Positions 4,966 to 21,370 of a DNA stretch of 64,000 nucleotides are shown one piece after another (position 1 is the stretch's first letter; each line of letters begins with the position of its first letter). A program made the translations under genes and the position numbers. Below the pieces are notes generated by a model. The model worked only from the letters and a program-made list of their open reading frames with translations. It searched no databases and was not told where the DNA came from. The stretch is taken from positions 319,257-383,256 of the forward strand of contig CAVPVX010000004.1 of NCBI GenBank assembly GCA_963709345.1, read 5' to 3'. This DNA is from an uncultured Actinomycetes bacterium (GTDB taxonomy: Bacteria; Actinomycetota; Thermoleophilia; UBA2241).

Positions 4966-5775
4966 TCACGCCGGCGCGCGGCTTGCCCCTTCGTCGTCGC
5001 GACCTTCCTTCTCATCCTCAGCGCTCGCGGCCTTCTCCTTCTTCGGCTGCACCAGGCGGGCCAGGACGATCGACGCCTCGTACAGGACGTACAGCGGTAC
5101 GAACATGGCCAGCATGGAGAAGGCGTCCTGCGACGGCGTGATGAAGGCCGCCATGACCGCGAGGACGAGGATGGCGTAGCGCCGGTACTTGCGCAGGAAG
5201 CGGTCGTCGATCACCCCGACCTTGGCGAGTAACACCAGCACCACGGGCAGCTCGAACACCACGCCGAAGGCGAGGATGAAGAGCGCCATGAAGGTGAAGT
5301 AGTCGCTGGCCCGGTTCTGGACGTTGAAGAAGCCGGAGCTGAAGTTGAGCAGAAAACCGAGGCCTCGCGGCAACACGAGGAAATACGCGAGCGCGATGCC
5401 GCCGAGGAACAACCCCGTCGAGGCGAAGACCACGGGGTAGAAGTAGCGCTTCTCCGTCGGCGTGAACGCCGGCGCCAGGAATGCCCACATCTGCCAGATG
5501 AGGATCGGTGAGGCCATGATCAGCCCGCCGGCGACCCAGACCTTGAGGCTGACCATGAACGGCTCGGCGGGACTGAACGTGGTGATCTGGTACGCCTCTT
5601 CCGGCAGGCCTTTCACTTGGCGGAGGGGCCACAAGAGCGCATCGAACACGAAGCTGTTGAAGACCGCCGCGACGAGCACGCCTGCGGTGACTGCGAGGAT
5701 GGAGCGGAAGAGCCGCTTGCGCAACTCGTCGAGGTGCTCGAGCAGCGGAAGGCGATCGTCGGGGGAGATGGGCAT
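4966..5775 (-). CDS. tatC: twin-arginine translocase subunit TatC
   Basis: LLEHLDELRKRL, PxEPF, QxWxFxAP, FELP, TPxxD motifs; six TM segments. Confidence 0.95.
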   Translation of the reverse strand: MPISPDDRLPLLEHLDELRKRLFRSILAVTAGVLVAAVFNSFVFDALLWPLRQVKGLPEEAYQITTFSPAEPFMVSLKVWVAGGLIMASPILIWQMWAFLAPAFTPTEKRYFYPVVFASTGLFLGGIALAYFLVLPRGLGFLLNFSSGFFNVQNRASDYFTFMALFILAFGVVFELPVVLVLLAKVGVIDDRFLRKYRRYAILVLAVMAAFITPSQDAFSMLAMFVPLYVLYEASIVLARLVQPKKEKAASAEDEKEGRDDEGASRAPA

Positions 5776-5781
5776 CGCTGC

Positions 5782-6324
5782 TCAGGAACCCGGGGCGAGG
5801 TCGTCGGCGGAGTCCGGCTCGCCGGCGTCAGGAGAATCCGAGGGCGCGGGCGTCTCGGCGAGGCCCGCCGGGCCGGCGGGCTCGGCGGGAGCGCCCGGCG
5901 AGTCTCCGGCTTGCGGTGCGCCCGGCGAGTCTGCGGCTTCCGGAGCGCCGGGAGATCCGGGGGCTCCGGCCGTCGCGGCAGCGCTTTCGTCGGTGGCGGC
6001 AGCTCCCGCGACGGCGCCCGCGACCGCCGCGGCCTCCACCGTCTCGCCGCCGCTCGCGGCGGCACCCGGCGCACCCGGCGCGGGCGCCTCGATGGCCGAC
6101 TTCAGGTCGACGGTCGACTTGAGGTCGCTGACGGTGGACTTGACGGAGCTGATCTCGGAAGCGACGTCGTCGAGGCCGAGTTCCGTGCGCGCCGTGGCGG
6201 CGGCATTGCGGAACTCGCGGATGCCCTTGCCGAGCGACCGGCCCATCTGCGGCAGTTGCTTGGGTCCGAAGACGAGCAACGCCAAGACGAGGACGACGAC
6301 TATCTCGATGGGTCCGACGTTCAC
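5782..6324 (-). CDS. tatA: TatA/TatB family subunit with long Ala/Pro/Gly-rich tail
   Basis: GPxEIxxxLVLALLVFGPKQLPxxGRSLGKGIREFR; lies directly upstream of tatC. Confidence 0.9.
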   Translation of the reverse strand: MNVGPIEIVVVLVLALLVFGPKQLPQMGRSLGKGIREFRNAAATARTELGLDDVASEISSVKSTVSDLKSTVDLKSAIEAPAPGAPGAAASGGETVEAAAVAGAVAGAAATDESAAATAGAPGSPGAPEAADSPGAPQAGDSPGAPAEPAGPAGLAETPAPSDSPDAGEPDSADDLAPGS

Positions 6325-6509
6325 AGGAGGGGCACCTCGTTAGGGGGTATCGTGCCACTCCATCGTACGAGCCGCGGGGCCGCAGGTCAACGCGGCGCAC
6401 GGCGAGCGTCCAAAGTCGTCGTCCAGATGTGGCCAATGCGTCGCCCGCTGGCGTGATTCCCCTGCAAAAGGGGGCTTGCCGCACATACCCCCTCCGGTTT
6501 CCCCGTCAG

Positions 6510-6539
6510 TTGCGTCGCGAGAAGCTGCTTTGGTAGAGT
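6510..6539 (+). promoter_or_regulatory. candidate sigma70-type promoter of the nuo operon
   Basis: TTGCGT-18 nt-TAGAGT with a TG extended -10, in the divergent tatA/nuoA intergenic region. Confidence 0.35.
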
Positions 6540-6594
6540 ACGCCGACGGTCCGCTCGGTCTCTGGTGGCAGGGGCTCGGGCCATCCACCTTCAG

Positions 6595-6963
6595 ATGACA
6601 AGCACATATCTCACCAACTGGTTGTACGTATGGCTGTTCATCGCCGCCGGCGGTGCGCTGGTCGTTCTCATCCTGCTCTTTTCCAAGCTCATCAACCCGA
6701 GTCACCTCACGCCCGAGAAGCTGCAGCCCTACGAGTGCGGCATCCCTCCGGTCGGCAATCCCTGGCAGCCGTTCGCGGTGCGCTACTTCGTGTACGGGCT
6801 CCTGTTCCTGGTGTTCGATGTGGAAGCCGCGTTCCTGTTCCCCTGGGCGCTCGTCTTCCGCTCGCTGGGCCCGGCCGGGTTCATCGAGATGCTCCTGTTC
6901 ATCGCCGTGCTGGCCCTCGGGCTTCTGTACGCCTGGCGCAAGGGGGCTCTCGAGTGGGCGTAG
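6595..6963 (+). CDS. nuoA: NADH-quinone oxidoreductase subunit A
   Basis: KxxPYECG, FLVFDVE, FPWA and [10 protein letters not shown] motifs. Confidence 0.95.
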
Positions 6964-7523
6964 GCGACTATCTGCCGGAGCGCGTCAAGGCCGTCCGGTA
7001 TCCCAAGCTCGAGCACTTCAGCGAGCCCAACGTCATCACTACGACGGCCGACTTCATCTTCAGCTGGGCGCGCTCGCACTCGGTGTTCCCGTTCACGTAC
7101 GGCCTCGCCTGCTGCGCCATCGAGATGCTGAGCTCCGGGTTCGCCCGCTTCGACGTGGCGCGCTACGGCATGGAGGTCTTCCGGCCGACACCGCGCCAGT
7201 GCGACCTCATGATCGTCGCCGGTACCGTCAACGAGAAGATGGCGCCGGTCCTCAAGCGCCTGTACGACCAGATGGCGGAGCCCAAGTGGGTCATCAGCAT
7301 GGGCGCCTGCGCGACCAGCGGCGGCCCCTTCTACGACGGCTACAACGTCGTGAACGGGGTCGACAAGATCGTCCCGGTCGACGTGTACATCCCCGGGTGC
7401 CCGCCGCGTCCCGAGGCGCTGTTCCAGGGGCTGCTGGAGCTCCAGGTCAAGATCCAGCAGCACAAGTTCGTCGCCGAGAAGCCGGCCATCGCCGAGGCCG
7501 CCGCACCGGATGGGGAGGCCTGA
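6954..7523 (+). CDS. nuoB: NADH-quinone oxidoreductase subunit B (cluster N2)
   Basis: GLACCAIEM, PRQxD, [13 protein letters not shown] and [16 protein letters not shown] start overlaps the nuoA end. Confidence 0.95.
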
Positions 7524-7527
7524 GCGC

Positions 7528-8022
7528 ATGGGTCTCGAGATCGGCACTCACCCGATGGGCATGGACGAGATCGCGGCGCTGCTTGCCGAGCGCTTCGCCG
7601 CCGAGTTCTTTGACGTGCGCGTGCAGGAGCCGGTCACCGTGGTCGCGCGCTGCGCCCGCGAGAATCTGGCAGGCGTCGCGAGGAGTCTCAAAGAGCATCC
7701 GGATGTCGGGTACGAGACCCTCAACTGGATCGCCGGCGTCGACCACGTGAAGTACTTCGAGAGCGTGTACCACGTGTACAGCTGGAAGACCAACACCTAT
7801 CTCGAGCTTCACGTCGAGGTGCCTTGCGCCACGCCCGAGGTCGAGACCGTCAGCGCTGTATGGCCCGCCGCCGATTGGCACGAGCGCGAGTCCTTCGACA
7901 TGGTCGGCATCGTCTACACCGGCCATCCCGACCTGCGCCGCATCCTGCTCAAGGACGACTTCATCGGGCACCCGCTGCGCAAAGACTACGTCGACCTCGC
8001 CGAGAACCACCCGCATGTTTGA
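7528..8022 (+). CDS. nuoC: NADH-quinone oxidoreductase subunit C
   Basis: [38 protein letters not shown]. Confidence 0.93.
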
Positions 8023-9229
8023 CGAGTTCGAGACACCCGAGCCGGACGAGGCCGTCAAGCTCGCGCTGCGCCGCATCGACGAAGCGACGGCGCGCGGCGA
8101 GGGCTCGGACGCCGACGGCCTCGCCTTCAACGAGTTGGTCGTCAACATGGGGCCGCAGCATCCCAGCACGCACGGCGTGCTGCGCCTCGTGGTCACGCTT
8201 GACGGCGAGTTGGTCAAAGACGTCATCCCGGTCGTCGGCTACCTGCACCGGTGCAAAGAGAAGCTCGCCGAGCGCCGCACCTACTACCAATACATCCCCA
8301 TAGTCGATCGCACCGAGTACCTGGCCAGCATCAACTGCGAGTGGGCCTACGTCATGACCGTCGAGAAGCTCGCCGGCATCCAGCCGACGCGGCGGGCGGA
8401 GTTCATCCGCGTCATCACCGGCGAGCTCATGCGCATCGCCAGCCACCAGGTCGCCGTCGGCACCTTCACCGCCGACCTCTCGCCGCTGGGCACGGCCATG
8501 ATCTTCTACATGTTCCGCGACCGTGAGTACATCCTCGACCTCCTCGAGGAGCTTACGGGCGCGCGCATGATGTTCAACTACTTCCGCTTCGGCGGCGTGC
8601 GCTACGACCTGCCGGACGGCTGGACCTCAAGGTGTCGCGCGTTCATGAAGAAGCTGCCGAAGCTCATCGACGAGTACGAGTCGCTGGTCGACGACAACGC
8701 GATCTTCCTGCAGCGCACCCAGGGCAAGGGCGTCATCACCCAGCAGGACGTCGTCGACTACGGCATCACCGGACCGTGCGCACGCGCCTCGGCGGTCGCC
8801 CACGACCTGCGCCGCACGCGGCCGTACTCGGTGTACCCGGAGCTCGATTTCGAGGTCTGCACGCTCGACCACGGGGACATCTTCGACCGCTACAAAGTCC
8901 GTATGAACGAGATGCGCGAGAGCATCAGGATCGTCGAGCAGTGCCTGGACATGCTGCCCAAGGGGCCGGTGCAGACCGGCTCGCTGCGCGCTCCCTACGT
9001 CATCACGCCGCCGCCCGGCTCCTGCTACGTCGGTCAGGAGAATCCACGTGGCGAGTACGGCACCTACATCGAGAGCGACGGCTCGAGGTATCCGTACCGG
9101 CTCAAGTACCGCGACCCGTGCTTCTGCAACCTGCAGATCTTCCCCAAGCTCCTCAGCGGCAACAAGATCGCCGACGCGGTGGCCATCTCGGGCAGCATCG
9201 ACCTCGTCCTCGGAGGCATCGACCGCTAG
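8015..9229 (+). CDS. nuoD: NADH-quinone oxidoreductase subunit D (quinone site)
   Basis: [19 protein letters not shown], DRxxY, ExPRGE and C-terminal GSIDxVxGxIDR. No NiFe CxxC ligands. Confidence 0.95.
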
Positions 9230-10348
9230 ATGGACGTCCTGCTCGCCATCCTTCGCGCCCTCGCCTTCGTCGTCATCGCCTACACGGTGGTGTTCGTCGC
9301 GGCGCTGGTGAACATCGTCTTCGAGCGCCGCGTCCTCGCCTTCATGCAGGACCGCCACGGGCCCAACCGCACGGGCCCGCACGGCGTGCTGCAGAGCGTC
9401 GCCGACGCCTTCAAGATGATGGGGAAGGAGGACTTTCGCCCGCTGCTCGCCGACCCGTTCCTGTTCACGCTCGCCCCGGTCATGGTGATGATCGGGGCGG
9501 TGGCCGTGCAGTTGGTGCTCCCGTACACGGCCGGCATCACTGCGACCGACCTCAACGTCGGCGTCATCTTCATCGTCGCGATCACCAGCTTCACGACGTT
9601 GGCGATCCTGCTGGGCGGCTGGTCGTCGCGCAACAAGTACTCCCTGGTCGGCGCGCTGCGCGCCGCCGCCCAGATGATCAGCTACGAGATCCCCATGATC
9701 CTCGGCCTGATCGTCGTCGTCATGGTCGTCGGTTCGTTCAGCGTCTCCGCCGTTGTCGAGGCGCAGGCCGGCTTCCAGTGGATCGCGTTCTACGCGCCCT
9801 TCACCTTCCTGATCTTCTACATCGCCTCGATCGCGGAGCTCAATCGCGGCCCCTTCGATCTGCCCGAGTCCGAATCGGAGCTCGTGTCCGGCTACGGCAC
9901 CGAGTACTCGGGCATGCGCTTCGGCATGTTCTTCCTCAACGAATACGCCGGCATGACCATCATGTCGATGGTCGCCGTGACGCTGTTCTTCGGCGGCTGG
10001 CAGGGTCCGTACGACAGCGCCGTGGTGTTCTTGGGCGTGTCGTGGATAGGCCTCGCCTGGTTCATCCTCAAGACCTACGTGCTCGTCTTCGCCCTGGTCT
10101 GGATCCGCCTGTCGCTGCCGCGTCTGCAGGTCGACCAGCTCATGGGCTTCGCCTGGAAGATCCTCATCCCGCTCGGCCTTGCGAACATCCTCGCCACGGC
10201 GGCGGTGATGCTCTGGGTGCCGAGCTGGAAGTGGGGGCTCGCGGTCTTCAGCTGGGTCGCGCTCCTCGCCTTCGTCGGCCTCTTCGACCCGATCCTCAAG
10301 TACCGCCTGCGCAAGCAGCGTGAGCGCCGGCCGGTGGTGAGCGCCTGA
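9230..10348 (+). CDS. nuoH: NADH-quinone oxidoreductase subunit H
   Basis: ERRxxAxxQxRxGPNRxGP, NKYSLxGALRAAAQxISYE, NRxPFDLPExESEL, RxDQLM-type motif. Confidence 0.95.
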   Translation: MDVLLAILRALAFVVIAYTVVFVAALVNIVFERRVLAFMQDRHGPNRTGPHGVLQSVADAFKMMGKEDFRPLLADPFLFTLAPVMVMIGAVAVQLVLPYTAGITATDLNVGVIFIVAITSFTTLAILLGGWSSRNKYSLVGALRAAAQMISYEIPMILGLIVVVMVVGSFSVSAVVEAQAGFQWIAFYAPFTFLIFYIASIAELNRGPFDLPESESELVSGYGTEYSGMRFGMFFLNEYAGMTIMSMVAVTLFFGGWQGPYDSAVVFLGVSWIGLAWFILKTYVLVFALVWIRLSLPRLQVDQLMGFAWKILIPLGLANILATAAVMLWVPSWKWGLAVFSWVALLAFVGLFDPILKYRLRKQRERRPVVSA

Positions 10349-11109
10349 TGCTCGGCATGTTCAAAGCCATGCGCACGACGCTCAAACATCTGCCGATGAA
10401 GAAGATCACGGTGCAGTATCCCGAGCAGCGCGATCGCCTGCCGGAGCGTAGCCGCGGCCTGTTTCGCGTCGTCATCGACCCGGCGAGCGGCGAGCCGCGT
10501 TGCCGCGCCTGCACGCTCTGCGAGAGCAACTGCCCGGTGCAGGTCATCCGCGTCAACTACGAGAGCAAGTACCGGCTCCCCGTGCCCAACGCGGCGCGCG
10601 TCGCGGAGGCGCGTCTCGCAGCGCAGACGGGCGTCGACCTCAAGGAACTGCAGCCGGTGCTCGACGACTACTACGAGCACGGCACCGGTCTCATCGCCAT
10701 ACTGCAGAACGCGCAGGAGGTCTACGGCTATCTGCCGCGCCTGGTGCTGCAGGAGATCGGTCTGCAGACGGGCGTCTCGCTCAGCCAGATCTACGGCGTC
10801 TCGAGCTTCTACAACCAGTTCCGGCTCTCCCCCGTCGGCGAGCACATCATCGACGTGTGCCACGGCACCGCCTGCCACGTGGCGGGTGCGGTGCAGATCA
10901 CCGAGGCCCTCGAGGAGGAGCTCGGCGTCGCCGAGGGCAAGACCACGACGGACATGAAGTTCACGCTGTCGTCGGTGGCCTGCATGGGCGCCTGCTCGCA
11001 GGCTCCCGTGATGCGCATCGGCGACGCGACCTACGGCGCTCTCACCCCCGACAAGACGCGCAAGATCATCCGCGACCTCATGCAAGAGGTCGGCGGTGAG
11101 AGGGGGTGA
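10348..11109 (+). CDS. fusion of the NuoI N-terminal half (one CxxCxxCxxxCP) with a NuoE/HydC [2Fe-2S] subunit
   Basis: Residues ~1-70 are NuoI-like (TxxYPE, RSRG, RCRACTLCESNCPVQVI). Residues ~95-253 are NuoE/HydC-like (LIAILQxAQExYGYLP, SFYxQF, CHGTACH, CMGACSQAP). Confidence 0.88.
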   Translation: MLGMFKAMRTTLKHLPMKKITVQYPEQRDRLPERSRGLFRVVIDPASGEPRCRACTLCESNCPVQVIRVNYESKYRLPVPNAARVAEARLAAQTGVDLKELQPVLDDYYEHGTGLIAILQNAQEVYGYLPRLVLQEIGLQTGVSLSQIYGVSSFYNQFRLSPVGEHIIDVCHGTACHVAGAVQITEALEEELGVAEGKTTTDMKFTLSSVACMGACSQAPVMRIGDATYGALTPDKTRKIIRDLMQEVGGERG

Positions 11110-13022
11110 GCGGAGGCGGCATGGCTGACGAGACCCCGACACCACGCGCCGCGACCGACGTGCGTAACGTCAGCGTCGCCGAAGGACCGGACGGCAGGTT
11201 CACCGTCAAGGTGTGCGCGGGTACGGCCTGCGTGTTCGCCGGCTCCCTCGCGGTCTACGACGCGTTCGTCGAGGAGGTCGCGGCCGCCGGGCTGGGAGAC
11301 AAGGTCGAGGTGAGCATCATCGGGTGCCATGGGCTCTGCTCGATGAGTCCGGTCGTGGTGCTCGGCGACGACACGCTCTACGGCCATCTGCGGCCGAAGG
11401 ACGTCGGCAAGGTCGTCGAGGAGCACCTCAAGGGGGGCGTGCCGGTCGAGCGGTTCCTCTACAAGGACGCCCAGACCGGCGAACGCATCCGCGACTGGCA
11501 CGATATCGGCTTCTACAAAGCGCAGACGCGCATCGCGCTCCGCGACGTCGGCGTCATCGACCCCGAGAGCATCGACGCCTACCTCGAGCGCGGCGGTTAC
11601 GAGGCTGCGCGCATGGCGCTCACCGAGAAGACGCCCGAGTGGATCATCGAGCACGTCACCGACTCGGGCATCCGCGGTCGCGGCGGCGCGGGGTTCCCGA
11701 CCGGCGTCAAGTGGAAGTTCGCGGCGCAGTCGAAGAGTGAGATCAAGTACCTCATCTGCAACGCCGACGAGGGCGACCCCGGCGCGTTCATGGATCGCTC
11801 GATCCTCGAGGGCGATCCGCACGCCGTCATCGAGGGCATGCTCATCGCCAGCTACGCGATCGGCGCGAGCGAGGGCTACGTGTACGTACGTGCCGAGTAC
11901 CCGCTCGCGGTCAAGCGCCTCACCATGGCGATAGCCGACGCCGAGGCGCGCGGCTTCCTCGGCAAGGACGTCTTCGGCACCGGCTGGGAGTTCAGCCTCC
12001 ACCTCAAGCTCGGCGCCGGCGCGTTCGTCTGCGGCGAGGAGACCGCCCTGATCGCCAGCATCGAGGGCAAGCGCGGCATGCCGCGCTCACGGCCGCCCTA
12101 CCCCGCAGTCAGCGGCCTCTGGGGCAAGCCGACCAACATCAACAACGTCGAGACGCTCGCCAACATCGCCTGGATCGTCACCCACCCCGCCGCGGCCTAC
12201 TCGGACCTGGGCATCGACGTCAGCCGCGGCACCAAGGCCTTCAGCCTGGCCGGCAAGCTCGTCAACGGCGGCCTCGCCGAGGTGCCGATGGGCAGCACGC
12301 TGCGCCACGTGATCTTCGACGTCGGCGGCGGCATCAAGGGCGGCAAGAAGTTCAAGGCCGTGCAGCTCGGCGGTCCGTCCGGGGGCTGCGTGCCGGCGAG
12401 CCTGCTCGACACCCCGGTCGACTACGAGAGCCTCGCCGCGACCGGCGCCATCGTGGGTTCCGGCGGCATGGTCGTCGTCGACGAAGAAACGTGCATGGTC
12501 GACCTCGCGCGCTTCTTCCTCGACTTCACGCAGAAGGAATCGTGCGGCAAGTGCATCCCCTGCCGCCTCGGCACCAAGCGCATGCTCGAGGTCCTCGACC
12601 GCATCATCGCCGGCGACGGCCGCGAGGGCGACATCGAGTTGCTTGAGGAGCTCGGCGCCTACATCATCGAGGGCTCGCTCTGCGCCCTCGGCGGCACCGC
12701 TCCGAACCCCGTGCTGACGACCATCAAGTACTTCCGCAGCGAATACGAGGCCCACATCCGCGAGAAGCGCTGTCCGGCCGGGACGTGCAAGTCGCTGATC
12801 ACGTACTACATCGATCCGGACGCGTGCACCGGCTGCACCCTCTGCGCCAAGAAGTGCCCGACCTCGTGCATCACCGGCGAGAAGAAGCAGCTGCACGTGA
12901 TCGACGTCGCGAACTGCATCAAGTGCGACACGTGCCGCCAGGTCTGCAAGTTCGACGCGGTCAAGGTGCGCTCGGGCATCGAGCAGGCCGTGGCCGGCAC
13001 CTCCGAAGGGGCTGAGAGCTGA
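11106..13022 (+). CDS. nuoF: NuoF of the HydB/BfuB type (FMN/NADH subunit with extra N-terminal [2Fe-2S] and C-terminal 2[4Fe-4S] domains)
   Basis: CAGTAC...CHGLC; GRGGAGFPTG; NADEGDPGAFMD; GAFVCGEET; GGPSGG; ESCGKCIPCRLG; H..CPAGTC; CTGCTLCAKKCP; CIKCDTCRQVC. Confidence 0.93.
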   Translation: MSGGGMADETPTPRAATDVRNVSVAEGPDGRFTVKVCAGTACVFAGSLAVYDAFVEEVAAAGLGDKVEVSIIGCHGLCSMSPVVVLGDDTLYGHLRPKDVGKVVEEHLKGGVPVERFLYKDAQTGERIRDWHDIGFYKAQTRIALRDVGVIDPESIDAYLERGGYEAARMALTEKTPEWIIEHVTDSGIRGRGGAGFPTGVKWKFAAQSKSEIKYLICNADEGDPGAFMDRSILEGDPHAVIEGMLIASYAIGASEGYVYVRAEYPLAVKRLTMAIADAEARGFLGKDVFGTGWEFSLHLKLGAGAFVCGEETALIASIEGKRGMPRSRPPYPAVSGLWGKPTNINNVETLANIAWIVTHPAAAYSDLGIDVSRGTKAFSLAGKLVNGGLAEVPMGSTLRHVIFDVGGGIKGGKKFKAVQLGGPSGGCVPASLLDTPVDYESLAATGAIVGSGGMVVVDEETCMVDLARFFLDFTQKESCGKCIPCRLGTKRMLEVLDRIIAGDGREGDIELLEELGAYIIEGSLCALGGTAPNPVLTTIKYFRSEYEAHIREKRCPAGTCKSLITYYIDPDACTGCTLCAKKCPTSCITGEKKQLHVIDVANCIKCDTCRQVCKFDAVKVRSGIEQAVAGTSEGAES

Positions 13023-13024
13023 CC

Positions 13025-15499
13025 ATGGCGACCACGGCGGAGAACGTACCCCAGACGAAGCCGCGCCCCGGCCAGATCACCCTGACCATCGACGGACAGG
13101 AAGTCACCTGCGAGCGCGGCGACACGATCCTCGAGGCTGCGCAGCGCATCGGCATCCACATCCCGACTCTCTGCTACGAGCCGCGGCTCCCGGCCACCGC
13201 CGCCTGCCGCATGTGCATCGTCGAGGTCGAGGGCGCCCGCAAGGTCGTCCCGAGCTGCTCCTCGGCGGTCAGCGACGGCATGGTCGTGCGCACCAACACC
13301 GACAAGGTGCGCGCCATGCGGCACCTGTATCTCGAGCTGCTGCTCAGCGACCACAACTCGTTCTGCACGCCGCCGTGCCGCGACGCCTGCCCGACGCACA
13401 TCAAGATCCCGCAGTTCCTCGACTACATCGCTCACAAGGACTACAAGAACGGCGTGCGCAAGCTGCGCGAGGATCTGCCCTTCCCGGCCATCTTGGGGCG
13501 CGTCTGCCCGCGGCCCTGTGAGGGACCGTGCCGTCGCCAGCTCGTGGAGCACCCCATCACCATCTGCCAGCTCCACCGCTTCATGGCCGACCAGACCATC
13601 GACGAGGAGCAGACCGGCGAGCTGCTGCTGCCGGTCGAGCCGAAGGCCGACACCGGTAGAAGGATCGCCGTCGTGGGTGGCGGGCCCGCCGGCCTGGCAT
13701 GCGCGTTCTATGCCCGGCTCGAGGGGCACTCGGTCAAGATCTTCGAGGCCCTGCCCAAGCCGGGCGGTATGCTCCGCTACGGCATCCCCAGCTACCGCCT
13801 GCCGCGCGACCTCCTCGACAAGGAGATCAACGTGCTCTGGCGCATGGGTGTCGAGATCCAAGTCGACAGCCGTCTCGGCGTTGACTACCAGCTTGAGGAT
13901 CTGCTGGGCGAGTACGACGCCGTCTTCCTCGGCCTCGGCGCCTTCAACAGCAACGACATGCGCATCCCCGGTGAAGACGCCGACGGAGTCGTCACCGCCG
14001 TCGACTTCCTCGGCGAGCTCGAGCGCACCGGCGAGGTGCACGTGGGCAAGAAGGTCACCGTCATCGGTGGCGGCTTCACGGCCATGGACGCCTGCCGCAC
14101 CGGCTTGCGCAAAGGCGCCGCCGAGGTCACCTGCCTCTACCGCCGCTCGCGCAAGGAGATGCCGGCGCACCACACCGAGGTCGACGAGGCCGAGGAGGAG
14201 GGCGTCAAGCTCGAGCTTCTCTGCGCGCCGCTCCGCGTGCTCACCGACGGCGCGAACAAGGTCACCGGCATCGAGATGCAGCGCATGGAGCTGGGCGAGC
14301 CCGACGCCTCCGGGCGCCGCCGCCCCGTGCCGGTCGAGGGCTCGGAGTTCGTCGTCGAGTGCGACCAGGTCATCGCCGCCATCGGCCAGTACCCCAAGCT
14401 CGACGGCACCAGCGAGGAACAGGGCGTCAAACGCACCAAGTGGCGTACGATCGAGGTCGACGACTGGACCTTCCAGACGGATGATCCGCGCGTCTTCGCC
14501 GGCGGTGACGCCGTGCTCGGCGCGCAGACGGTGATCCAGGCCGTGGCGCAGGGCAAGAAGGCCGCCTGGAGCATCGACGCCTTCCTGCGCGGCGCCGACA
14601 TGCGCGACGTGGGGCAGTCGCTCGCGGAGCTCAAGGCCACGCCGTTCTTCAACGCGCTGACGAACAAGACGGATCTCGACCCGCGCATCGCGCGAATGGC
14701 CGAGATCCCACCCGTGTTCATCGACATGACCACCGACGTGAAGCACCCGAGCCCGCCCGCCGAGATGCCCAAGCTCCCCCCCGACGAGCGCAGGACCAAC
14801 TTCAAGCAGATCGAGCTCGGCTTCAGCGAAGAAGAGGCCGTCCGCGGCGCCGAGCTCTGCCTCGATTGCTACTGCCCGGCGAACGGCAAGTGCGACCTCC
14901 AGCGGTACAGCATCGAGTACGAGGTGTTCAAGAACCGCTTCCACGGCGGCGAAGCCCACGACTACCCGGCCGACTTCCGCCACGACTTCATCATGCGCGA
15001 GCCCAACCGCTGCATCAATTGCGGGCGCTGCGTGCGCGTCTGCCGCATGGAGGTGGGCTCGAGCTGCTACGACAACATGGGCCGCGGGTTCGACTCCATC
15101 GTCAGCACGGCCGACAATCTGCCGCTGCAGCTGGTCGGCTGCGTGAGTTGCGGCAAGTGCGCGGAGACCTGCCCGACCGGGTCCATCGAGACCAACCCGC
15201 GCCTGCTCGCCAGCTACGACCTGGACGAGAGCCGCTGCATCTTCTGCGGGGAGTGCGTCGAGGTCTGCCCCTACGACGCGCTCGAGCAGACCGACTACTA
15301 CGAGCTTGCCGGCTACAATCGCACGACCATGGCGAGGGAGTCGCTCTACGTGCGTGAGCCGCGCCCCGCCGACCCGCTGCGCGAGACGCTCCCCGACCTC
15401 GTGCCGCACGTGCGCGACGCGGTGCTGGGCGCCGGCTGGGTGTGGGATCCGATCAAGGACGACCCGATCGACCTGGGCGACCCGGAGGAGGCCGGCTGA
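13025..15499 (+). CDS. NuoG/HydA N-terminal Fe-S region with an inserted GltD/SudA-like FAD/NADPH domain, fused to the NuoI C-terminal half
   Basis: [2Fe-2S] region CY..ACRMCIVE..PSC; GltD-like PCRDACP, GRVCPRPCE, GGGPAG, YGIPxYRLP, GGGFTAMD, YRRS, GGD; then CDLQ, CINCGRCVRVC, CVSCGKCAETCPTG; ends with NuoI-like YDLDESRCIFCGECVEVCPYDALEQTDYYELA. Confidence 0.88.
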   Translation: MATTAENVPQTKPRPGQITLTIDGQEVTCERGDTILEAAQRIGIHIPTLCYEPRLPATAACRMCIVEVEGARKVVPSCSSAVSDGMVVRTNTDKVRAMRHLYLELLLSDHNSFCTPPCRDACPTHIKIPQFLDYIAHKDYKNGVRKLREDLPFPAILGRVCPRPCEGPCRRQLVEHPITICQLHRFMADQTIDEEQTGELLLPVEPKADTGRRIAVVGGGPAGLACAFYARLEGHSVKIFEALPKPGGMLRYGIPSYRLPRDLLDKEINVLWRMGVEIQVDSRLGVDYQLEDLLGEYDAVFLGLGAFNSNDMRIPGEDADGVVTAVDFLGELERTGEVHVGKKVTVIGGGFTAMDACRTGLRKGAAEVTCLYRRSRKEMPAHHTEVDEAEEEGVKLELLCAPLRVLTDGANKVTGIEMQRMELGEPDASGRRRPVPVEGSEFVVECDQVIAAIGQYPKLDGTSEEQGVKRTKWRTIEVDDWTFQTDDPRVFAGGDAVLGAQTVIQAVAQGKKAAWSIDAFLRGADMRDVGQSLAELKATPFFNALTNKTDLDPRIARMAEIPPVFIDMTTDVKHPSPPAEMPKLPPDERRTNFKQIELGFSEEEAVRGAELCLDCYCPANGKCDLQRYSIEYEVFKNRFHGGEAHDYPADFRHDFIMREPNRCINCGRCVRVCRMEVGSSCYDNMGRGFDSIVSTADNLPLQLVGCVSCGKCAETCPTGSIETNPRLLASYDLDESRCIFCGECVEVCPYDALEQTDYYELAGYNRTTMARESLYVREPRPADPLRETLPDLVPHVRDAVLGAGWVWDPIKDDPIDLGDPEEAG

Positions 15500-16008
15500 T
15501 GCCCGGCGGCGACTTCCATCCCTGGTTCTTCGTCATCGTCGCCGCGTGGGTGCTCGTCTGCGGCCTCGGCGTCGTGCTGTTCAAGAAGATCATGTACTCG
15601 GCCGTGTCGATGATCTTCTGCTTCCTCGGCGTGGCGTTCGCCTTCGCGCTGCTCAACGCGCCGCTGGTCGCCGTCCTGCAGATCGTGATCTACGTCGGCG
15701 CCATCTCGATCGTCGTGATCTTCGCGATCATGCTCACCGAGGTCCAGACCGGCGGCTTCGAGCTCTTCTTCAACCGCCAGACGCTGGGCGCGGCCGTCGT
15801 CGCCCTCGTCGGCGCCGCGGTCCTCGCCGTGGTCGCCCTGTCGGCGGACATCGGGGCAGTGGGCGAGAAGTCGCTCACCCCGGGCATCAAGACGCTGTCG
15901 CGTCTCATCTTCGACCGGTACGTGCTGCCGTTCGAGTTGGTCTCGCTGGTGCTGGTGGCGGCCATGATCGGCGCCATCGTCCTCGCGCATCGAGAGGAGG
16001 AGCGCTGA
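15499..16008 (+). CDS. nuoJ: NADH-quinone oxidoreductase subunit J
   Basis: QIxIYVGAIxxxxxFAIML and YVLPFELxSLVLxxAMIGAI. Confidence 0.93.
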   Translation: MPGGDFHPWFFVIVAAWVLVCGLGVVLFKKIMYSAVSMIFCFLGVAFAFALLNAPLVAVLQIVIYVGAISIVVIFAIMLTEVQTGGFELFFNRQTLGAAVVALVGAAVLAVVALSADIGAVGEKSLTPGIKTLSRLIFDRYVLPFELVSLVLVAAMIGAIVLAHREEER

Positions 16009-16316
16009 TGGATCCACTCCAGTGGTGGCTGTTGCTCTCGATCCTGCTCTTCTGCATCGGCGCCTTCGGCGTGCTCGCCCGGCGGAACGTGATCGTCGTC
16101 GTCATGAGCCTCGAGATCATGCTCAGCGCGGTGAACATCGCGCTGGTCGCGACCGCCAACTTCAGGGGCGGCGCGCGTGGCGCCGGCACGCTCTTCGCAC
16201 TGTTCATGATCGTGCTGGCCGCCTCCGAGGTCACGGTGGGCCTGGCGATAGTCATCGCCAACTACCGCAACCGGCGCACCGTACAGACCGACACCTACGA
16301 CGAGCTCAAGGGGTAG
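16008..16316 (+). CDS. nuoK: NADH-quinone oxidoreductase subunit K
   Basis: LFxIGxxGVLxRRN, EIMLxAVN, AASEVxVGLAI and terminal LKG. Confidence 0.93.
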   Translation: MDPLQWWLLLSILLFCIGAFGVLARRNVIVVVMSLEIMLSAVNIALVATANFRGGARGAGTLFALFMIVLAASEVTVGLAIVIANYRNRRTVQTDTYDELKG

Positions 16317-16329
16317 CGAGGAAGCACCG

Positions 16330-18246
16330 GTGGAGGGGACTCAGTACATGAAGATCGCCGTGGCGCTCATCCCGCTGCTGCCGCTGCTCGGCTTCATCGT
16401 GACGCTCGTGCTCGGCAAGCGCTGGGGCGCCAGGGCCCACATCCTTGCGGTCGCGCTCGTCACCGTCTCGGCGGCGCTCAGCATCTACGCCTTCATCTGG
16501 GCGTTCACGCATCAGCACGAGACCTTCGTCTGGGACGCCTTCACCTGGGTCGCGGCCGGTCGCTTCACCGTCGAGTGGGGTTTCCAGGTCGACACCCTGA
16601 CCGGCGTCATGCTCCTCGTGGTCGGCATCATCGGCATGGTCGTGCACTACTACTCGATCGGCTACATGCACGGCGACGAGGGCTACTACCGCTTCTTCGC
16701 CTACCTCAACCTGTTCATGTTCGCGATGTTCGTGCTCATCCTCGCCGACAACTACCTCCTGCTCTTCCTCGGCTGGGAGGGCGTGGGCCTGTGCTCGTAC
16801 CTGCTGATCGCCTTCTGGTTCCGCAAGAAGAGCGCCAGCCAGGCGGGCAAGAAGGCCTTCATCGTCAACCGGGTCGGCGACTTCGGCTTCATGCTCGCCA
16901 TGTTCACCATCTTCACGGCGACCGGCACGCTCCAGTTCAGCGGCGTCTTCGAGGCCGCCGAGTCCGGCGCGATCGCCGGCGGCACCATGACCTGGATCTG
17001 CCTGCTGCTGTTCGCCGGCGCGATCGGCAAGAGCGCCCAGTTCCCGCTGCACGTGTGGCTGCCGGACGCCATGGAGGGCCCCACGCCGGTCAGCGCGCTC
17101 ATCCACGCCGCCACGATGGTCAACGCCGGCGTCTACATGGTCGCGCGCTCGTACCCGCTGTTCATCAGCAGCGAGACGGCGATGCTCGTCGTCATGGGTA
17201 TCGGCATCTTCACCGCGATCTTCGCGGCCTACATCGCGATCACCCAGAACGACATCAAGAAGGTGATCGCGTACTCCACCATCTCGTCGCTCGGCTTCAT
17301 GTTCGTGGCGCTCGGCGCCGGGGCCTGGGTGGCGGGCATCTTCTACCTGTTCGCGCACGGCTTCTTCAAGGGACTGCTGTTCCTCTGCTCGGGCTCGGTG
17401 ATCCACGCCATGGGCGGGGAACAGGACATGCGCAAGATGGGGGGACTGCGCAAGAAGCTCCCCATCACCTTCTGGACGATGATGGCCGGCGCCCTCTCCA
17501 TGGTCGGACTGATCCCCTTCGCAGGCTTCTGGGCCAAGGACGAGATCATCGGCGCGACGTTCATCCACGGGTACTACGTGGTGTGGGCGGTGGCGATGGT
17601 CGTCGTGCTCCTCACCGCCATCTACATGGGGCGTCTCATGTTCCTCACCTTCTGGGGCGAGAACCGCTCCGACGCCGAGGTGCAGGCCCATATCCACGAG
17701 TCGCCGCCGATCATGACGGTGCCGCTGATCGTCCTCGCGATCCCTGCCGCCCTGCTCGGCCTCGTCGTCGGCCTGCCGCCCGAGGGAGGCTGGATCCACG
17801 ACTTCCTGCACCCGGTCTTCTTCGATGTCGAGGGCGAGCCGTTCCACCTGCTCGGCGAGGGCGGGCTGCTCATGCTCGCCTCCCTCGCCACTGTGCTGGT
17901 GGGTCTGTACGTCGCCTACTACCTCTACGTGCGCCAGACGGAGATCCCCGGGCGCATCGCCGCGCGCGTTCCCGTCGCCTACAAGGCCAGCCTCAACAAG
18001 ATGTACATGGACGACATCTACGACGTCGTGCCGATCCGCGCCACGCTCGGGTTCGCCGACTGGCTCTGGACCTTCTTCGACGTCAAAGTCATCGACGGCG
18101 CCGTCAACGGCATGGCCCGCCTCTGGGGCTGGGCCGGCGACCGCTTGCGGCCCATCCAGACCGGTCGCGTCCAGAGCTACGCCATGTACATGTTCGCCGG
18201 CATGGTGCTTCTCGTGATCGTCTTCGCCTGGGTCTGGGTGAGTTGA
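16330..18246 (+). CDS. nuoL: NADH-quinone oxidoreductase subunit L
   Basis: GWEGVGLCSYLLI, KAFIVNRVGD, KSAQFPLHVWLPDAMEGPTPVSALIHAATMV; lateral-helix tail IDGAVNG..QTGRVQ. Confidence 0.95.
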   Translation: MEGTQYMKIAVALIPLLPLLGFIVTLVLGKRWGARAHILAVALVTVSAALSIYAFIWAFTHQHETFVWDAFTWVAAGRFTVEWGFQVDTLTGVMLLVVGIIGMVVHYYSIGYMHGDEGYYRFFAYLNLFMFAMFVLILADNYLLLFLGWEGVGLCSYLLIAFWFRKKSASQAGKKAFIVNRVGDFGFMLAMFTIFTATGTLQFSGVFEAAESGAIAGGTMTWICLLLFAGAIGKSAQFPLHVWLPDAMEGPTPVSALIHAATMVNAGVYMVARSYPLFISSETAMLVVMGIGIFTAIFAAYIAITQNDIKKVIAYSTISSLGFMFVALGAGAWVAGIFYLFAHGFFKGLLFLCSGSVIHAMGGEQDMRKMGGLRKKLPITFWTMMAGALSMVGLIPFAGFWAKDEIIGATFIHGYYVVWAVAMVVVLLTAIYMGRLMFLTFWGENRSDAEVQAHIHESPPIMTVPLIVLAIPAALLGLVVGLPPEGGWIHDFLHPVFFDVEGEPFHLLGEGGLLMLASLATVLVGLYVAYYLYVRQTEIPGRIAARVPVAYKASLNKMYMDDIYDVVPIRATLGFADWLWTFFDVKVIDGAVNGMARLWGWAGDRLRPIQTGRVQSYAMYMFAGMVLLVIVFAWVWVS

Positions 18247-18247
18247 C

Positions 18248-19834
18248 GTGAGCTGGAACGACCAGATCGGCTTCCCGATTCTCTCCGTCATCACCTTCCT
18301 GCCGCTCGCCGGCGTGCTGGTGATCCTGCTCGTGGGCCGCGGCCGCCCCGTCGTGTACAAGACGATCGCCCTCATCGTGACGCTGGCGGCGTTCGTCCTC
18401 TCGGTGTGGATGCTGTTCGCCTTCAGGACCACGCTGCCGGGCATGCAGTTCGCCGAAGACCTGAAGTGGATCGAGGCGCTGAACATCCACTACGGCATGG
18501 GCGTCGACGGCATCGCCGCGCTGCTCGTCTTCCTGACGACGCTGCTCGGCTGCATCGTCATCATCTCCAGTTGGAACTACGTGAAGGACCGTGAGGTCGG
18601 CTTCTTCATCTCGCTGCTGCTTCTCCAGGTGGGGATGGTCGGCGTCTTCTGCGCCACCGACCTCTTCCTCTTCTACGTGTACTGGGAAGCCATGCTGGTG
18701 CCGATGTACTTCATCATCGGCATCTGGGGCGGCCCGCGCCGGGTCTACGCGGCGATCAAGTTCTTCCTGTTCACGCTGGTCGGCAGCCTGCTCATGCTCG
18801 TCGCGATCATCGTCGTCGTGTACTACGTGCAGGACGGCGCGGGGCCGCTGACGTTCGACATCCAGGAGCTCAGCCGCCAGGTGTACTCGTATCACCTGCA
18901 GTTCTGGGCCTTCCTCGCCTTCTTCCTGGCGTTCGCCATCAAGGTGCCGATGTTCCCGCTGCACACCTGGCTCCCGGATGCCCATGTCGAGGCGCCGACG
19001 GCCGGCTCCGTCATCCTCGCCGGCGTGCTCCTCAAGATGGGCGGCTACGGCATGCTGCGCTTCTGCCTGCCGTTCTTCCCGGACGCCTCGGTGACGTTCA
19101 TCCCGTGGGTGGTAGGGCTCTCGGTGATCGCGATCATCTACGGCGCGCTCGTCGCGCTCATGCAGAAGGACCTCAAGAAGCTGGTCGCGTACTCGAGCGT
19201 GAGCCACATGGGTTTCGTCACCGCCGGCATCTTCGCCAGCATCGCGCTGGTCGGCAACGCGGCCGGCATGGAGGGCGCGATCCTCGTCATGCTCAGCCAC
19301 GGCTTCCTCACCGGCGCCCTGTTCCTCATGGTCGGCTACGCCTACGAGCGCACGCACACACGCCTGATCGCCGACATGGGCTCGCTGGCCAAGCCGCTGC
19401 CCATCCTGGCCGGGTTCTTCCTCTTCTTCGCCTTCGGCTCCGCCGGGCTGCCCGGCCTGAGCGGCTTCGTCGGCGAGTTCCTCAGCCTGCTCGGCGTCTT
19501 CGAGTACTCGCGCTGGCTGGCGGCGCTCGGCGCGCTCGGCGTGATCCTCGCCGCCGCCTACCTCCTCTGGATGTTCCAGCGCACGATGTTCAACGACCGT
19601 GGCGACGCCGACGTGAAGCCCACGTTCGAGCTCAAGGACCTGAACGCCCGTGAGATCGTGTCGCTGCTGCCGCTGGTCGTCTTCGTCGTCTGGCTCGGCG
19701 TGTATCCCGAGACGTTCCTGAACTTCCTGCACGTGCCGGTGCAGGCGATCCTCGACAAGGTCACGCCGTCGCTCCAGGACGCGAGCGTGCATGGGCTGGC
19801 GCAGCTCTTCGACGTCACCAGGGGGCTGTTCTAG
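18248..19834 (+). CDS. nuoM: NADH-quinone oxidoreductase subunit M
   Basis: IKVPMFPLHTWLPDAHVEAPT, LLKMGGYG, AYSSVSHMG and GFVGEF. Confidence 0.95.
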   Translation: MSWNDQIGFPILSVITFLPLAGVLVILLVGRGRPVVYKTIALIVTLAAFVLSVWMLFAFRTTLPGMQFAEDLKWIEALNIHYGMGVDGIAALLVFLTTLLGCIVIISSWNYVKDREVGFFISLLLLQVGMVGVFCATDLFLFYVYWEAMLVPMYFIIGIWGGPRRVYAAIKFFLFTLVGSLLMLVAIIVVVYYVQDGAGPLTFDIQELSRQVYSYHLQFWAFLAFFLAFAIKVPMFPLHTWLPDAHVEAPTAGSVILAGVLLKMGGYGMLRFCLPFFPDASVTFIPWVVGLSVIAIIYGALVALMQKDLKKLVAYSSVSHMGFVTAGIFASIALVGNAAGMEGAILVMLSHGFLTGALFLMVGYAYERTHTRLIADMGSLAKPLPILAGFFLFFAFGSAGLPGLSGFVGEFLSLLGVFEYSRWLAALGALGVILAAAYLLWMFQRTMFNDRGDADVKPTFELKDLNAREIVSLLPLVVFVVWLGVYPETFLNFLHVPVQAILDKVTPSLQDASVHGLAQLFDVTRGLF

Positions 19835-21370
19835 ATGGGTCTGAACAACACGATCTCAGTGATCCTGCCGGGCGTGGTCTTCGCGCTCGCCGCCGGGCTC
19901 GTCTTCGTCGTCGACCTCTTCGTGCGGCGTAAGGGCGCGCTTGCCTGGATCGCCGTCGCCGGTCTCGTCGCGGGCGCCGCCGTGGCCGTCGGCCAGTGGG
20001 GCCAGTGGACGGGGGGCTGGGCCGTCTGGAAGGTCTTCAGCGGCGGTCTCGGCTTCGGCCGGCGCGAGATGGTGGTGGGCTTTGCCGGCATGATCGGACA
20101 CGACCGCTACGCGCTCTTCTGCGTCGTGCTGTTCGCCGCCGTCGGCGTCCTCACGATCATGCTCTCGGACGCCTATCTCGCGAAGCGCAAGGCCGCGCGC
20201 GGAGAGTTCTACGGCCTGCTGCTGCTCATCATCACCGGCATGACCGGCATGGTCATGAGCACCGACATCGTCCCGTTCTTCGTGTCTTTCGAGCTCATGT
20301 CGCTCCCCACGTACATCCTGGCCGGGTACGTCTGGCGGGAGCAGCGCTCCACGGAGGCGGCGCTCAAGTACTTCGTGACCGGCGCCTTCTCCTCGGCGAT
20401 CCTCGCCCTCGGCCTCGCGCTCCTGTACGCGGCCACCGGCCAGACCAGCTATCGCGGCATCGCCGCCGGCCTCGGTGCTCTCGGCGGTCTCGAATCCGGC
20501 GGCTTCCTCGTCGTGGCCTTCGTGCTCGTGGTCACGGGCTTCGGCTTCAAGATCTCGGCGGTGCCCTTCCACAGTTGGGCGCCTGATGTGTACGAGGGGG
20601 CGCCCACGCCGGTCACGGCCTTCATGTCCGTCGGCGTGAAGGCCGCCGCCTTCGCCGGGTTCGCCAAGCTCTTCCTCATGGCCGCCGGCGTCGACTGGCA
20701 GCACTGGGGTCACGTCATGATCGTCCTCGCCGTGCTCACGATGGTGGTCGGGAACGTGCTGGCGCTGCCGCAACGCAATCTCAAGCGCATGCTCGCCTAC
20801 TCGAGCATCGCCCACGCGGGCTACCTGACGCTCGGCATCATCGCCGCCGGCAAGAGCGGCGACCCGCTCGGGGTGAGTGCGATCCTCTTCTACCTCTCGG
20901 CCTACGCGCTCATGAACCTCGGCGCGTTCGGCGTCCTGATCTGGATCCGCAGTCGCCGGACGTTCGCGTACACGCTCGACGAGATGGCCGGCCTGGGGCG
21001 CAGCCTGCCGTGGCCGGCCATTCTCATGGCGTTGTTCATGATCTCGCTCACCGGCATCCCGCCGACGGCCGGCTTCTGGGGCAAGTTCTACCTGTTCACG
21101 GCGGTCGTGCAGGCCGACCTCACCTGGCTCGCGATCGTCGCCGTGCTCATGAGCACCGTCTCCGCCTACTACTACCTGCGCGTCGTCTGGTACATGTACT
21201 TCCGTGAGGCGCCCGAGGAGGCGGAGATCGTCGCCGAGCCCAGGACGTCGCAAGTGGGCGTCGCCGCCGCCGTCACGGTCGCCGCGCTCGGCGTCCTTCT
21301 GGTCGGCCTCTTCCCGGACCCGCTCCTGCGGGCCGCCGAGGGAGCGCTGCGCCTGCTCGCCGGCGGCTGA
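19835..21370 (+). CDS. nuoN: NADH-quinone oxidoreductase subunit N
   Basis: EAALKYF, FKISAVPFHxWAPDVYEGAP, KRMLAYSSIAHAG and SLTGIPPTAGFWGK. Confidence 0.95.
   Translation: MGLNNTISVILPGVVFALAAGLVFVVDLFVRRKGALAWIAVAGLVAGAAVAVGQWGQWTGGWAVWKVFSGGLGFGRREMVVGFAGMIGHDRYALFCVVLFAAVGVLTIMLSDAYLAKRKAARGEFYGLLLLIITGMTGMVMSTDIVPFFVSFELMSLPTYILAGYVWREQRSTEAALKYFVTGAFSSAILALGLALLYAATGQTSYRGIAAGLGALGGLESGGFLVVAFVLVVTGFGFKISAVPFHSWAPDVYEGAPTPVTAFMSVGVKAAAFAGFAKLFLMAAGVDWQHWGHVMIVLAVLTMVVGNVLALPQRNLKRMLAYSSIAHAGYLTLGIIAAGKSGDPLGVSAILFYLSAYALMNLGAFGVLIWIRSRRTFAYTLDEMAGLGRSLPWPAILMALFMISLTGIPPTAGFWGKFYLFTAVVQADLTWLAIVAVLMSTVSAYYYLRVVWYMYFREAPEEAEIVAEPRTSQVGVAAAVTVAALGVLLVGLFPDPLLRAAEGALRLLAGG

Follow-up and report, generated by a model that had tools for sequence, protein, structure and literature searches.

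A complex I operon of Thermoleophilia with an Nfn-Bfu/Stn-type cassette inside nuoI

A C-B-A cassette between two halves of NuoI

We analyzed a 64-kb stretch of DNA (64,000 nt, hereafter the window) from the genome of an uncultured soil and sediment bacterium of the class Thermoleophilia (Actinomycetota), its closest named relatives being MAGs of uncultured Thermoleophilia, in which a complex I (nuo) operon of 13 genes occupies positions 6595-21370 of the + strand. Inside nuoI, this operon carries three genes that make up an Nfn-Bfu/Stn-type cassette, arranged C-B-A, with the two ends of the cassette fused to the two parts of NuoI, giving the layout nuoA-B-C-D-H-[NuoI-N::NuoE]-[HydB-type NuoF]-[NuoG-N::GltD::Fd::NuoI-C]-nuoJ-K-L-M-N, in which adjacent genes overlap by 1-14 nt or are separated by 0-13 nt. 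This finding is real and conserved, and the mechanism that we propose for it below is plausible: judging from the sequences, the operon probably encodes the organism's sole complex I, composed of an 11-subunit body and the cassette inserted in its NuoI, which would pass electrons from NAD(P)H to menaquinone.

The division of NuoI was apparent from its family model, TIGR01971, which matches two proteins of the operon in a complementary manner, with model positions 2-66 corresponding to residues 8-74 of a 253-aa protein (10348..11109, +; NCBIfam NuoI 2.6e-13, NuoE 1.2e-42), and positions 69-115 (of 121) to residues 724-770 of an 824-aa protein (13025..15499, +). The N-terminal half, residues 1-74 of the 253-aa protein (nt 10348-10569), includes the stretch MKKITVQYPE and a single CxxCxxCxxxCP motif (Cys52/55/58/62); it is followed by a linker (residues 75-99), the least conserved stretch of this protein, and by a NuoE/BfuC (NuoE/HoxE-type) [2Fe-2S] domain (residues 100-244). 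The C-terminal half (nt 15194-15334 of the 824-aa gene) contributes the second motif, Cys738/741/744/748. All eight Cys of the 253-aa protein are present in each of the 39 aligned sequences, including Cys171/176/212/216, the ligands of the BfuC-type [2Fe-2S] cluster (C1). Thus, no single polypeptide in the operon has the two [4Fe-4S] motifs of NuoI, which occur instead as two halves on two proteins. In a ferredoxin fold with two clusters, the motifs share the ligation, such that every cluster is bound by three Cys of one motif and a single Cys of the other; because of this sharing, the halves must pair to bind N6a and N6b.

The genome (3.11 Mb in 11 contigs, 98% complete) encodes no intact nuoI elsewhere: a genome-wide search for the NuoI family gave no match above the cut-off, and the two halves were among the four best matches, all of which were below it. 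The nuoH search gave one match in the whole genome. With one nuoH and no spare NuoI, the complex I of this locus is therefore the only one in the organism and relies on the split subunit.

The rest of the operon encodes the other subunits of an 11-subunit-type body. The quinone (Q) module consists of NuoB (6954..7523, +; Pfam Oxidored_q6, E 2e-29), NuoC (7510..8022, +; Complex1_30kDa, E 5e-39) and the quinone-site subunit NuoD (8015..9229, +; Complex1_49kDa, E 6e-92), for which the best match of known structure is the NdhH subunit of the cyanobacterial NDH-1 (6hum_H, 6e-101), followed by Nqo4 of Thermus (1e-97). NuoB retains the motifs CC...GAC...GCPP, which we take to be the N2 ligands, and NuoD retains HPSTHG and DRTEY, presumably at the positions of His38 and Tyr87 of the Thermus subunit. 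All seven membrane subunits are recognized by Pfam: NuoA (6595..6963, +; Oxidored_q4, E 1e-37; ATG start, with an alternative GTG at 6565), NuoH (9230..10348, +; NADHdh, E 2.5e-112), NuoJ (15499..16008, +; Oxidored_q3, E 1e-29), the ATG of which overlaps the stop codon of the 824-aa gene, NuoK (16008..16316, +; 102 aa; Oxidored_q2, E 5.5e-26), NuoL (16330..18246, +; Proton_antipo_M and Proton_antipo_N), NuoM (18248..19834, +; Proton_antipo_M) and NuoN (19835..21370, +; Proton_antipo_M). An automatically called open reading frame at 16022-16351 is in the wrong frame, the Oxidored_q2 match placing the gene at 16008-16316.

These data bear out the initial annotation with respect to the elements of the operon, their coordinates, strand and domain parsing, as well as the intact quinone-site subunits NuoB and NuoD and the three antiporter-like subunits. 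That annotation further held that the flavoprotein head stands in place of NuoEFG, which has to be revised. There is no nuoEFG between nuoD and nuoH, the NuoF-like protein has 638 residues with extra domains, and the NuoG-like 824-aa protein lacks the NuoG C-terminal domain, so that no canonical N module is present; the cassette instead lies inside the nuoI of an operon with the 11-subunit gene order.

The cassette subunits and their known relatives

Both large subunits of the cassette found their best PDB matches among the electron-bifurcating Nfn-Bfu/StnABC transhydrogenases of Caldicellulosiruptor (9bov/9bp5), Sporomusa (8oh5/8oh9) and Thermococcus (9n5u/9n5v). The 638-aa protein (11106..13022, +; 9bov_B 1.7e-238, 8oh5_B 9e-238) matches the solved NfnB, StnB and HydB, the B subunits of NfnABC, Stn and the bifurcating hydrogenases, at E 1e-238 to 1e-187, better than Nqo1 of Thermus (4e-120), which covers residues 148-555 only. 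It comprises, by Pfam, a thioredoxin-like [2Fe-2S] domain (2Fe-2S_thioredx, residues 27-106), the FMN/NADH domain (Complex1_51K, 184-355), the N3/B1 domain (NADH_4Fe-4S, 466-550) and a 2x[4Fe-4S] domain (Fer4, 567-620). The B1 ligands Cys480/483/486/526 are present in 30/30 orthologues, and the Cys of the extra domains in 29-30/30. Between the N3 and ferredoxin domains, His550, Cys556 and Cys561 are invariant and can be mapped to the B2 (zinc) site by position only.

The 824-aa protein aligns without a break with the solved NfnA/StnA subunits 9bov_A (2e-190), 8oh5_C and 9n5u_A (E 2e-190 to 1e-160). A [2Fe-2S] domain (residues 17-92) and His110 (N5-type) are followed by a GltD/NfnL-type FAD-NADPH domain with two [4Fe-4S] clusters (114-521), N5-like Cys (612-623), a two-cluster ferredoxin domain (655-720), the NuoI C-half and a conserved tail; Pfam Fer2_4, Fer4_20 and Pyr_redox_2, together with NCBIfam, support this parsing and the placement of the GltD/NfnL insert after the [2Fe-2S] domain. 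The match to NfnA/StnA stops at residue 723-744, and the NuoI C-half takes the place of the Fdh-like domain. The cluster Cys are present in 34/34 sequences. The stretch LYRRSRKEMPA aligns with the NADP(H) site of three solved NfnA/StnA proteins and conforms to the pattern YRR[ST]..EMPA, the two Arg of which we assume to serve in this site. It is retained in 27 of the 34 orthologues, that of the window included; at seven loci (L025, L026, L027, L029, L043, L048 and L055), residues 348-380 (GGG...LYRRSRKEMPA) are altered, for example, to GDG...CRNP or VHSP, with all Fe-S ligands retained. The tail of ~50 residues after the NuoI C-half (15335-15496) contains the conserved pattern DLVPHV...GW.W.P.KDDP and has no family match. 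The assignments of the 638-aa protein to the HydB/BfuB type and of the 824-aa protein to the NfnA/StnA type, both made in the initial annotation, are thus well founded.

The architecture invites comparison with several known or predicted systems. With the Nfn-Bfu/Stn enzymes, the cassette shares the C-B-A order, a C subunit with a [2Fe-2S] cluster, a B subunit with FMN, B1 and extra N- and C-terminal Fe-S domains, and an A subunit composed of the NuoG N-terminus, a GltD/NfnL insert and a two-cluster ferredoxin domain. Those enzymes are soluble, stand-alone heterotrimers, whereas the cassette is embedded in a nuo operon, the NuoI C-half replacing the Fdh-like C-terminal domain of A, the NuoI N-half replacing the N-terminal domain of C, and a His replacing the Lys ligand of cluster A7. 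The 11-subunit or 'ancestral' complex I/NDH-1 has the same order A-B-C-D-H-I-J-K-L-M-N (bioRxiv 10.1101/2021.02.01.429150), with no nuoEFG between D and H, but possesses an intact NuoI/NdhI and takes electrons from ferredoxin or an unknown donor, in contrast to the flavoprotein module built into NuoI here. That source, a heliorhodopsin preprint, refers to Thermoleophilia and to complex I, the operons that it describes being of the ordinary 11-subunit kind. The canonical complex I of 14 subunits, as found in Thermus (Nqo1-14), E. coli and mitochondria, shares with this locus the Q module and membrane arm, an FMN/N3 core in NuoF, a [2Fe-2S] fold in NuoE and the N1b, N5 and N4 motifs of NuoG; it differs in its NuoG C-terminal domain, its intact NuoI and its gene position, and the locus adds a FAD site and four or five more clusters.

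The closest published concept is Nuo-Bfu, a 14-subunit complex I in which BfuABC replaces NuoEFG; this complex, as yet uncharacterized, was predicted by Schut et al. (2022, PMC9304861) for Geobacter, Deferribacteres, Planctomycetes and Nitrospirae. Like the present operon, Nuo-Bfu is conceived as a proton-pumping quinone reductase with a Bfu head that offers ferredoxin and NADH sites, and its Bfu genes occupy a central position among the nuo genes. Unlike Nuo-Bfu, which has 14 subunits and a separate NuoI, the operon analyzed here comprises 13 genes and combines a split NuoI with a GltD domain; the available description of Nuo-Bfu, which concerns other phyla, mentions neither a GltD/NADPH domain nor a split subunit. 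In our search of openly accessible main texts, the term Nuo-Bfu occurred in PMC9304861 only, and no complex I with a split NuoI or a GltD domain was described. The initial annotation, which knew of no described complex I with this architecture, has to be qualified: a Bfu head on complex I was predicted in 2022, and only the split NuoI, the GltD/NADPH domain and the loss of the NuoG C-terminal domain appear to be new, the modules themselves being known.

Conservation, reduced forms and paralogous cassettes

A scan for the locus with one genome per species returned 77 loci, 40 of which have the order H-[NuoI-N::NuoE]-F-[824-aa type]-J, with the fusion matched from residue 10 or earlier, so that the layout cannot be ascribed to chance. 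The 824-aa protein with the NuoI tail was found at 53/77 loci, the 13 beyond these 40 being on cut contigs; the remainder comprised 4 loci cut inside a gene, 4 with a different paralogue and 16 soluble C-B-A operons from other phyla, without nuo neighbors. After exclusion of sequences that lacked a start codon, contained internal stops or fell outside narrow length windows, the alignments contained 39 (253-aa), 30 (638-aa) and 34 (824-aa) sequences, in which the cluster ligands are kept in 29-30/30 to 39/39 cases at 49-91% identity to the window.

These results bear directly on the possibility that a soluble nfnCBA operon destroyed nuoI, leaving a dead complex I next to a cassette that works alone. 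Insertion into a core gene does resemble a disruptive event, and split BLAST matches in some related loci suggest frameshifts. However, the reading frame is preserved across both junctions, none of the 13 genes is damaged, the ligand Cys are invariant, the arrangement recurs in 40 loci with identities as low as 57% and extends to Chloroflexota, and the C-terminal Fdh-like domain of NfnA has been replaced precisely. We therefore consider such decay, or an artefact, extremely improbable. The soluble relatives of the cassette are themselves encoded in the order C-B-A, and the simplest history suggested by the sequences would be the insertion of one C-B-A cassette into the loop that separates the two NuoI motifs, with in-frame fusion of its ends and loss of the Fdh-like domain.

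In a sample of 401 thermoleophilian genomes, 80 belong to the window's own family, and 63 of these encode a full-length NuoI-N::NuoE fusion, with 8 more showing partial or split matches and the remaining 9 being mostly 56-89% complete; the fusion was found in none of the 321 genomes of 11 other families (one unpublished genome, G344, included). In public protein data, at least 120 distinct 90%-identity clusters carry the fusion at no less than 96% coverage and, where named, are annotated simply as NuoE. A profile made from the fusion alignment was searched against 1.84 billion representatives, and its best 150 matches included two full-length 50%-identity clusters (P0029, P0126) and fragments; the others were mostly plain NuoE/HydC-like proteins aligned to the NuoE part, a few having an N-terminal extension, including a POR-linked type (P0125). 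In RNA runs, 5-8% of the sampled words were found. The contigs listed from four metatranscriptome libraries, mostly 113-364 nt long and one of 820 nt, match parts of the three genes at 90-95% identity; one spans the junction between the 253-aa and 638-aa genes, and another connects the last ferredoxin motif with the NuoI C-half. These contigs come from relatives and may hold DNA, and are no evidence of expression of this locus.

Outside the class, a related form occurs in Chloroflexota. Residues 600-824 of the 824-aa protein matched 63 of 301 Chloroflexota genomes at 47-56% identity, mostly in open frames of ~760 to 1,430 codons, and in 62 of the 63, the match passes through the NuoI C-half motif and extends to about residue 763-798. 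In two of three regions examined, the genes are arranged A-B-C-D-H-[NuoI-N::NuoE]-F-[824-aa type]-J-L-M-N, and in the third, B-[NuoI-N::NuoE]-F-[824-aa type]. The whole 253-aa fusion at E <= 1e-40 matched a single genome of the 301, with a non-fusion protein, a threshold too strict for the diverged form. At two Chloroflexota loci (L095 7666-12252, L096 6248-11177), the linker after the NuoI N-half is longer.

A second type of cassette is linked to pyruvate:ferredoxin oxidoreductase (POR), in operons that consist of PorD, PorA, [half-ferredoxin::NuoE-like], BfuB-like and [NfnA-like::half-ferredoxin::PorB]. It was found in two related genomes (L088 8050-15521; L087 5484-10263, - strand) and in the source genome (contig C7 457500-465760, equivalent to L097 5535-13757), where PorA and the B subunit are spread over several reading frames, possibly through assembly error or decay. 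Among NCBIfam Fe-S families, the half-motifs of the POR cassettes best match the NuoI models. This arrangement recalls Por-Bfu, likewise predicted by Schut et al. (2022, PMC9304861); the cassette paralogue found here has the same half-ferredoxin ends as the nuo cassette and a fusion to PorB. Taken together, the two settings suggest, at the level of sequence, that the half-ferredoxin::C-B-A::half-ferredoxin cassette might be a portable plug.

In quick maximum likelihood trees (SH-aLRT support only, midpoint rooted), one clade (support 99) unites the B subunits embedded in nuo operons with those linked to POR, and the soluble NfnB of other phyla fall outside it. In the A tree, the thermoleophilian nuo, Chloroflexota nuo, POR-linked and Fdh-type paralogous subunits form one clade (support 100) with unresolved internal order. 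Because the POR copies are nested among the nuo copies in the B tree but have a long branch of their own in the A tree, these placements suggest that the two kinds of cassette arose by duplication followed by exchange of parts.

Two further paralogues were observed. The closest stand-alone paralogue of the 824-aa protein (L034 9971-14209; also L035-L037), with 66% identity over residues 18-742, has no E-like or F-like genes nearby and runs into a molybdopterin domain that resumes in the next open reading frame past a stop codon; this stop might be read through as selenocysteine, in which case the product could be a formate dehydrogenase linked to NADPH. For the E-F pair, the closest paralogue, with 57% and 60-77% identity, is in the source genome (contig C3 16233-18577, - strand), its F part consisting of five BLAST pieces that fall into several frames by coordinates, and no A subunit was found beside it.

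A proposed electron path and its alternatives

From these observations, we infer an assembly, an electron path, substrates, a direction of flow and pumping for the complex along the following lines. The two NuoI halves, one on the NuoE/BfuC-like N-terminus and the other on the NfnA-like C-terminus, would reunite to bind N6a and N6b, and the reunited NuoI would bolt the soluble module to the quinone module. In Caldicellulosiruptor NfnABC, the N-terminal domain of NfnC rests against the Fdh-like C-terminal domain of NfnA (PMC11829005), and the NuoI halves are located where these two domains meet in the soluble enzyme. A complex prediction for the halves (residues 650-824 of the 824-aa protein with residues 1-100 of the 253-aa protein, each with its own alignment) gave a score of 0.14, the mark being 0.32, which speaks neither for nor against their pairing. 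NADH at the FMN of the 638-aa protein and NADPH at the GltD FAD would both feed the Fe-S chain of the 824-aa protein. In the Caldicellulosiruptor enzyme, electrons take the path FAD-A7-A6-A3-A2-A1 to the B1-FMN-C1 site, with A2-A4-A5 as a dead-end branch (PMC11829005); here, the terminal ferredoxin domain of the 824-aa protein, a dead end in soluble NfnA, would deliver them to N6a/N6b of NuoI and onward to N2 in NuoB and to menaquinone, and this flow would drive the three antiporter-like subunits. Because the operon retains the entire Bfu core, with C1, B1, FMN and the additional Fe-S domains of B, ferredoxin might be co-oxidized or co-reduced in the process. In the broadest version of the scheme, which we regard as possible but doubtful, the complex would be a four-substrate machine that joins NADH, NADPH, ferredoxin and menaquinone through the split NuoI, with the cassette acting as a portable plug that also serves POR.

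Several observations weigh against an NAD(P)H-to-menaquinone machine built in this way. The 25-residue linker from the NuoI N-half to the NuoE domain is shorter than the canonical NuoE-NuoI distance, so that the head would have to be packed differently from that of known complex I. The three-Cys-one-Lys ligation of cluster A7 is absent: the A7-ligating Lys of solved NfnA/StnA (Lys170 of Caldicellulosiruptor NfnA) aligns with His184 (nt 13574-13576), which is found in 34/34 nuo-embedded orthologues, with a Cys three residues before it in 33/34. In Sporomusa, bifurcation was lowered or abolished when this Lys was changed (cited in PMC11829005), so that electrons may enter from FAD in a different way here. 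Furthermore, the NADPH-site motif is missing from 7/34 orthologues, a subclade that may have given up NADPH input. Finally, the Chloroflexota NuoF matches residues 115/145-575 only, without the extra Fe-S domains, and the NuoE of this form lacks two of the four [2Fe-2S] Cys (two sequences read); the thermoleophilian form in the window is therefore the complete version and that of Chloroflexota a reduced one. In view of the motif-less orthologues and the Chloroflexota forms, some lineages can dispense with NADPH input and some with the Bfu core.

Such losses would fit a plain NAD(P)H:menaquinone oxidoreductase in which B3/B4, B5 and C1, the additional Bfu clusters, survive as structural remnants and neither ferredoxin coupling nor bifurcation takes place. 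The pared-down NuoF and NuoE of Chloroflexota and the His at A7 point in this direction, and non-bifurcating homologues of BfuABC exist (PMC9304861). However, the extra-cluster ligands are kept in 29-30/30 orthologues of the 638-aa protein at 58-88% protein identity, which argues for their use, and the genome is rich in ferredoxin-linked enzymes, with no Rnf found. On balance, we consider this alternative unlikely.

The physiology encoded by the genome speaks for the proposed scheme. The genome contains an MqnA/D gene of the menaquinone pathway, genes for cytochrome bd and an SdhA/FrdA-like protein and no fewer than three catalytic domains of [FeFe] hydrogenases, and no Rnf, heme-copper oxidase or MenA was found in it; it fits an anaerobe or microaerophile that needs an electron link of this kind. 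We also observed two clusters of [FeFe] hydrogenase domains beside NuoE/NuoF/NuoG-N-like genes (C7 296000-313100 and 629400-634600) and at least five Bfu-type modules in the genome.

Homology suggests that the complex may bifurcate electrons, have a functional ferredoxin port and run in reverse, as the initial annotation proposed. A further alternative is a bifurcating or reverse machine, in which menaquinone would serve as the high-potential acceptor that allows NAD(P)H to reduce ferredoxin, as in Fix but with a Bfu core, or the proton-motive force would drive electrons from menaquinol to NAD(P)+ or ferredoxin. The Bfu core is complete, ferredoxin is known to bind near B3/B4 in Thermococcus NfnABC (PMC12018979), and the hydrogenases and POR need reduced ferredoxin in a genome where Rnf was not found. 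Nevertheless, it is thermodynamics and analogy alone that speak for this case, we identified no lithotrophic source of quinol, and the three pumping subunits suggest forward, exergonic flow. We deem such a machine quite improbable, and the forward transfer of electrons from NAD(P)H to menaquinone remains the reading that we prefer.

If the embedded module works like its soluble relatives, NADPH, NADH and perhaps ferredoxin would be coupled directly to menaquinone reduction and proton pumping, and the complex, if this is true, would take the role of Rnf, which was not found in these anaerobes. Complex I is among the most thoroughly studied enzymes, and its 14 core subunits are regarded as invariant building blocks; in this operon, one of the core Fe-S subunits is split and appears to serve as the docking device of a foreign flavoprotein module. 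The host bacteria are frequent in metagenomes from peat, soil, sediment and digesters. Moreover, the full thermoleophilian form, the stripped Chloroflexota form, the subclade without the NADPH site and the POR-linked paralogue make up a natural series for exploring what the individual parts of a Bfu core are required for, and the operon provides a concrete, purifiable candidate for the membrane-bound Bfu enzymes, which so far have only been predicted.

With regard to the surroundings of the operon, a search of the window matched no Rfam family, and a scan of positions 5800-6800 for promoters and terminators gave none on the + strand, with one promoter-like site upstream of nuoA on the - strand, in the stretch between tatC and nuoA. 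The ~790 nt upstream of nuoA (5776-6564) contain only open reading frames without a family match. The tatC gene (4966-5775, - strand) lies divergently upstream of the operon, a YmdB-like gene is located downstream, and the G+C content of the window is 63-73%.

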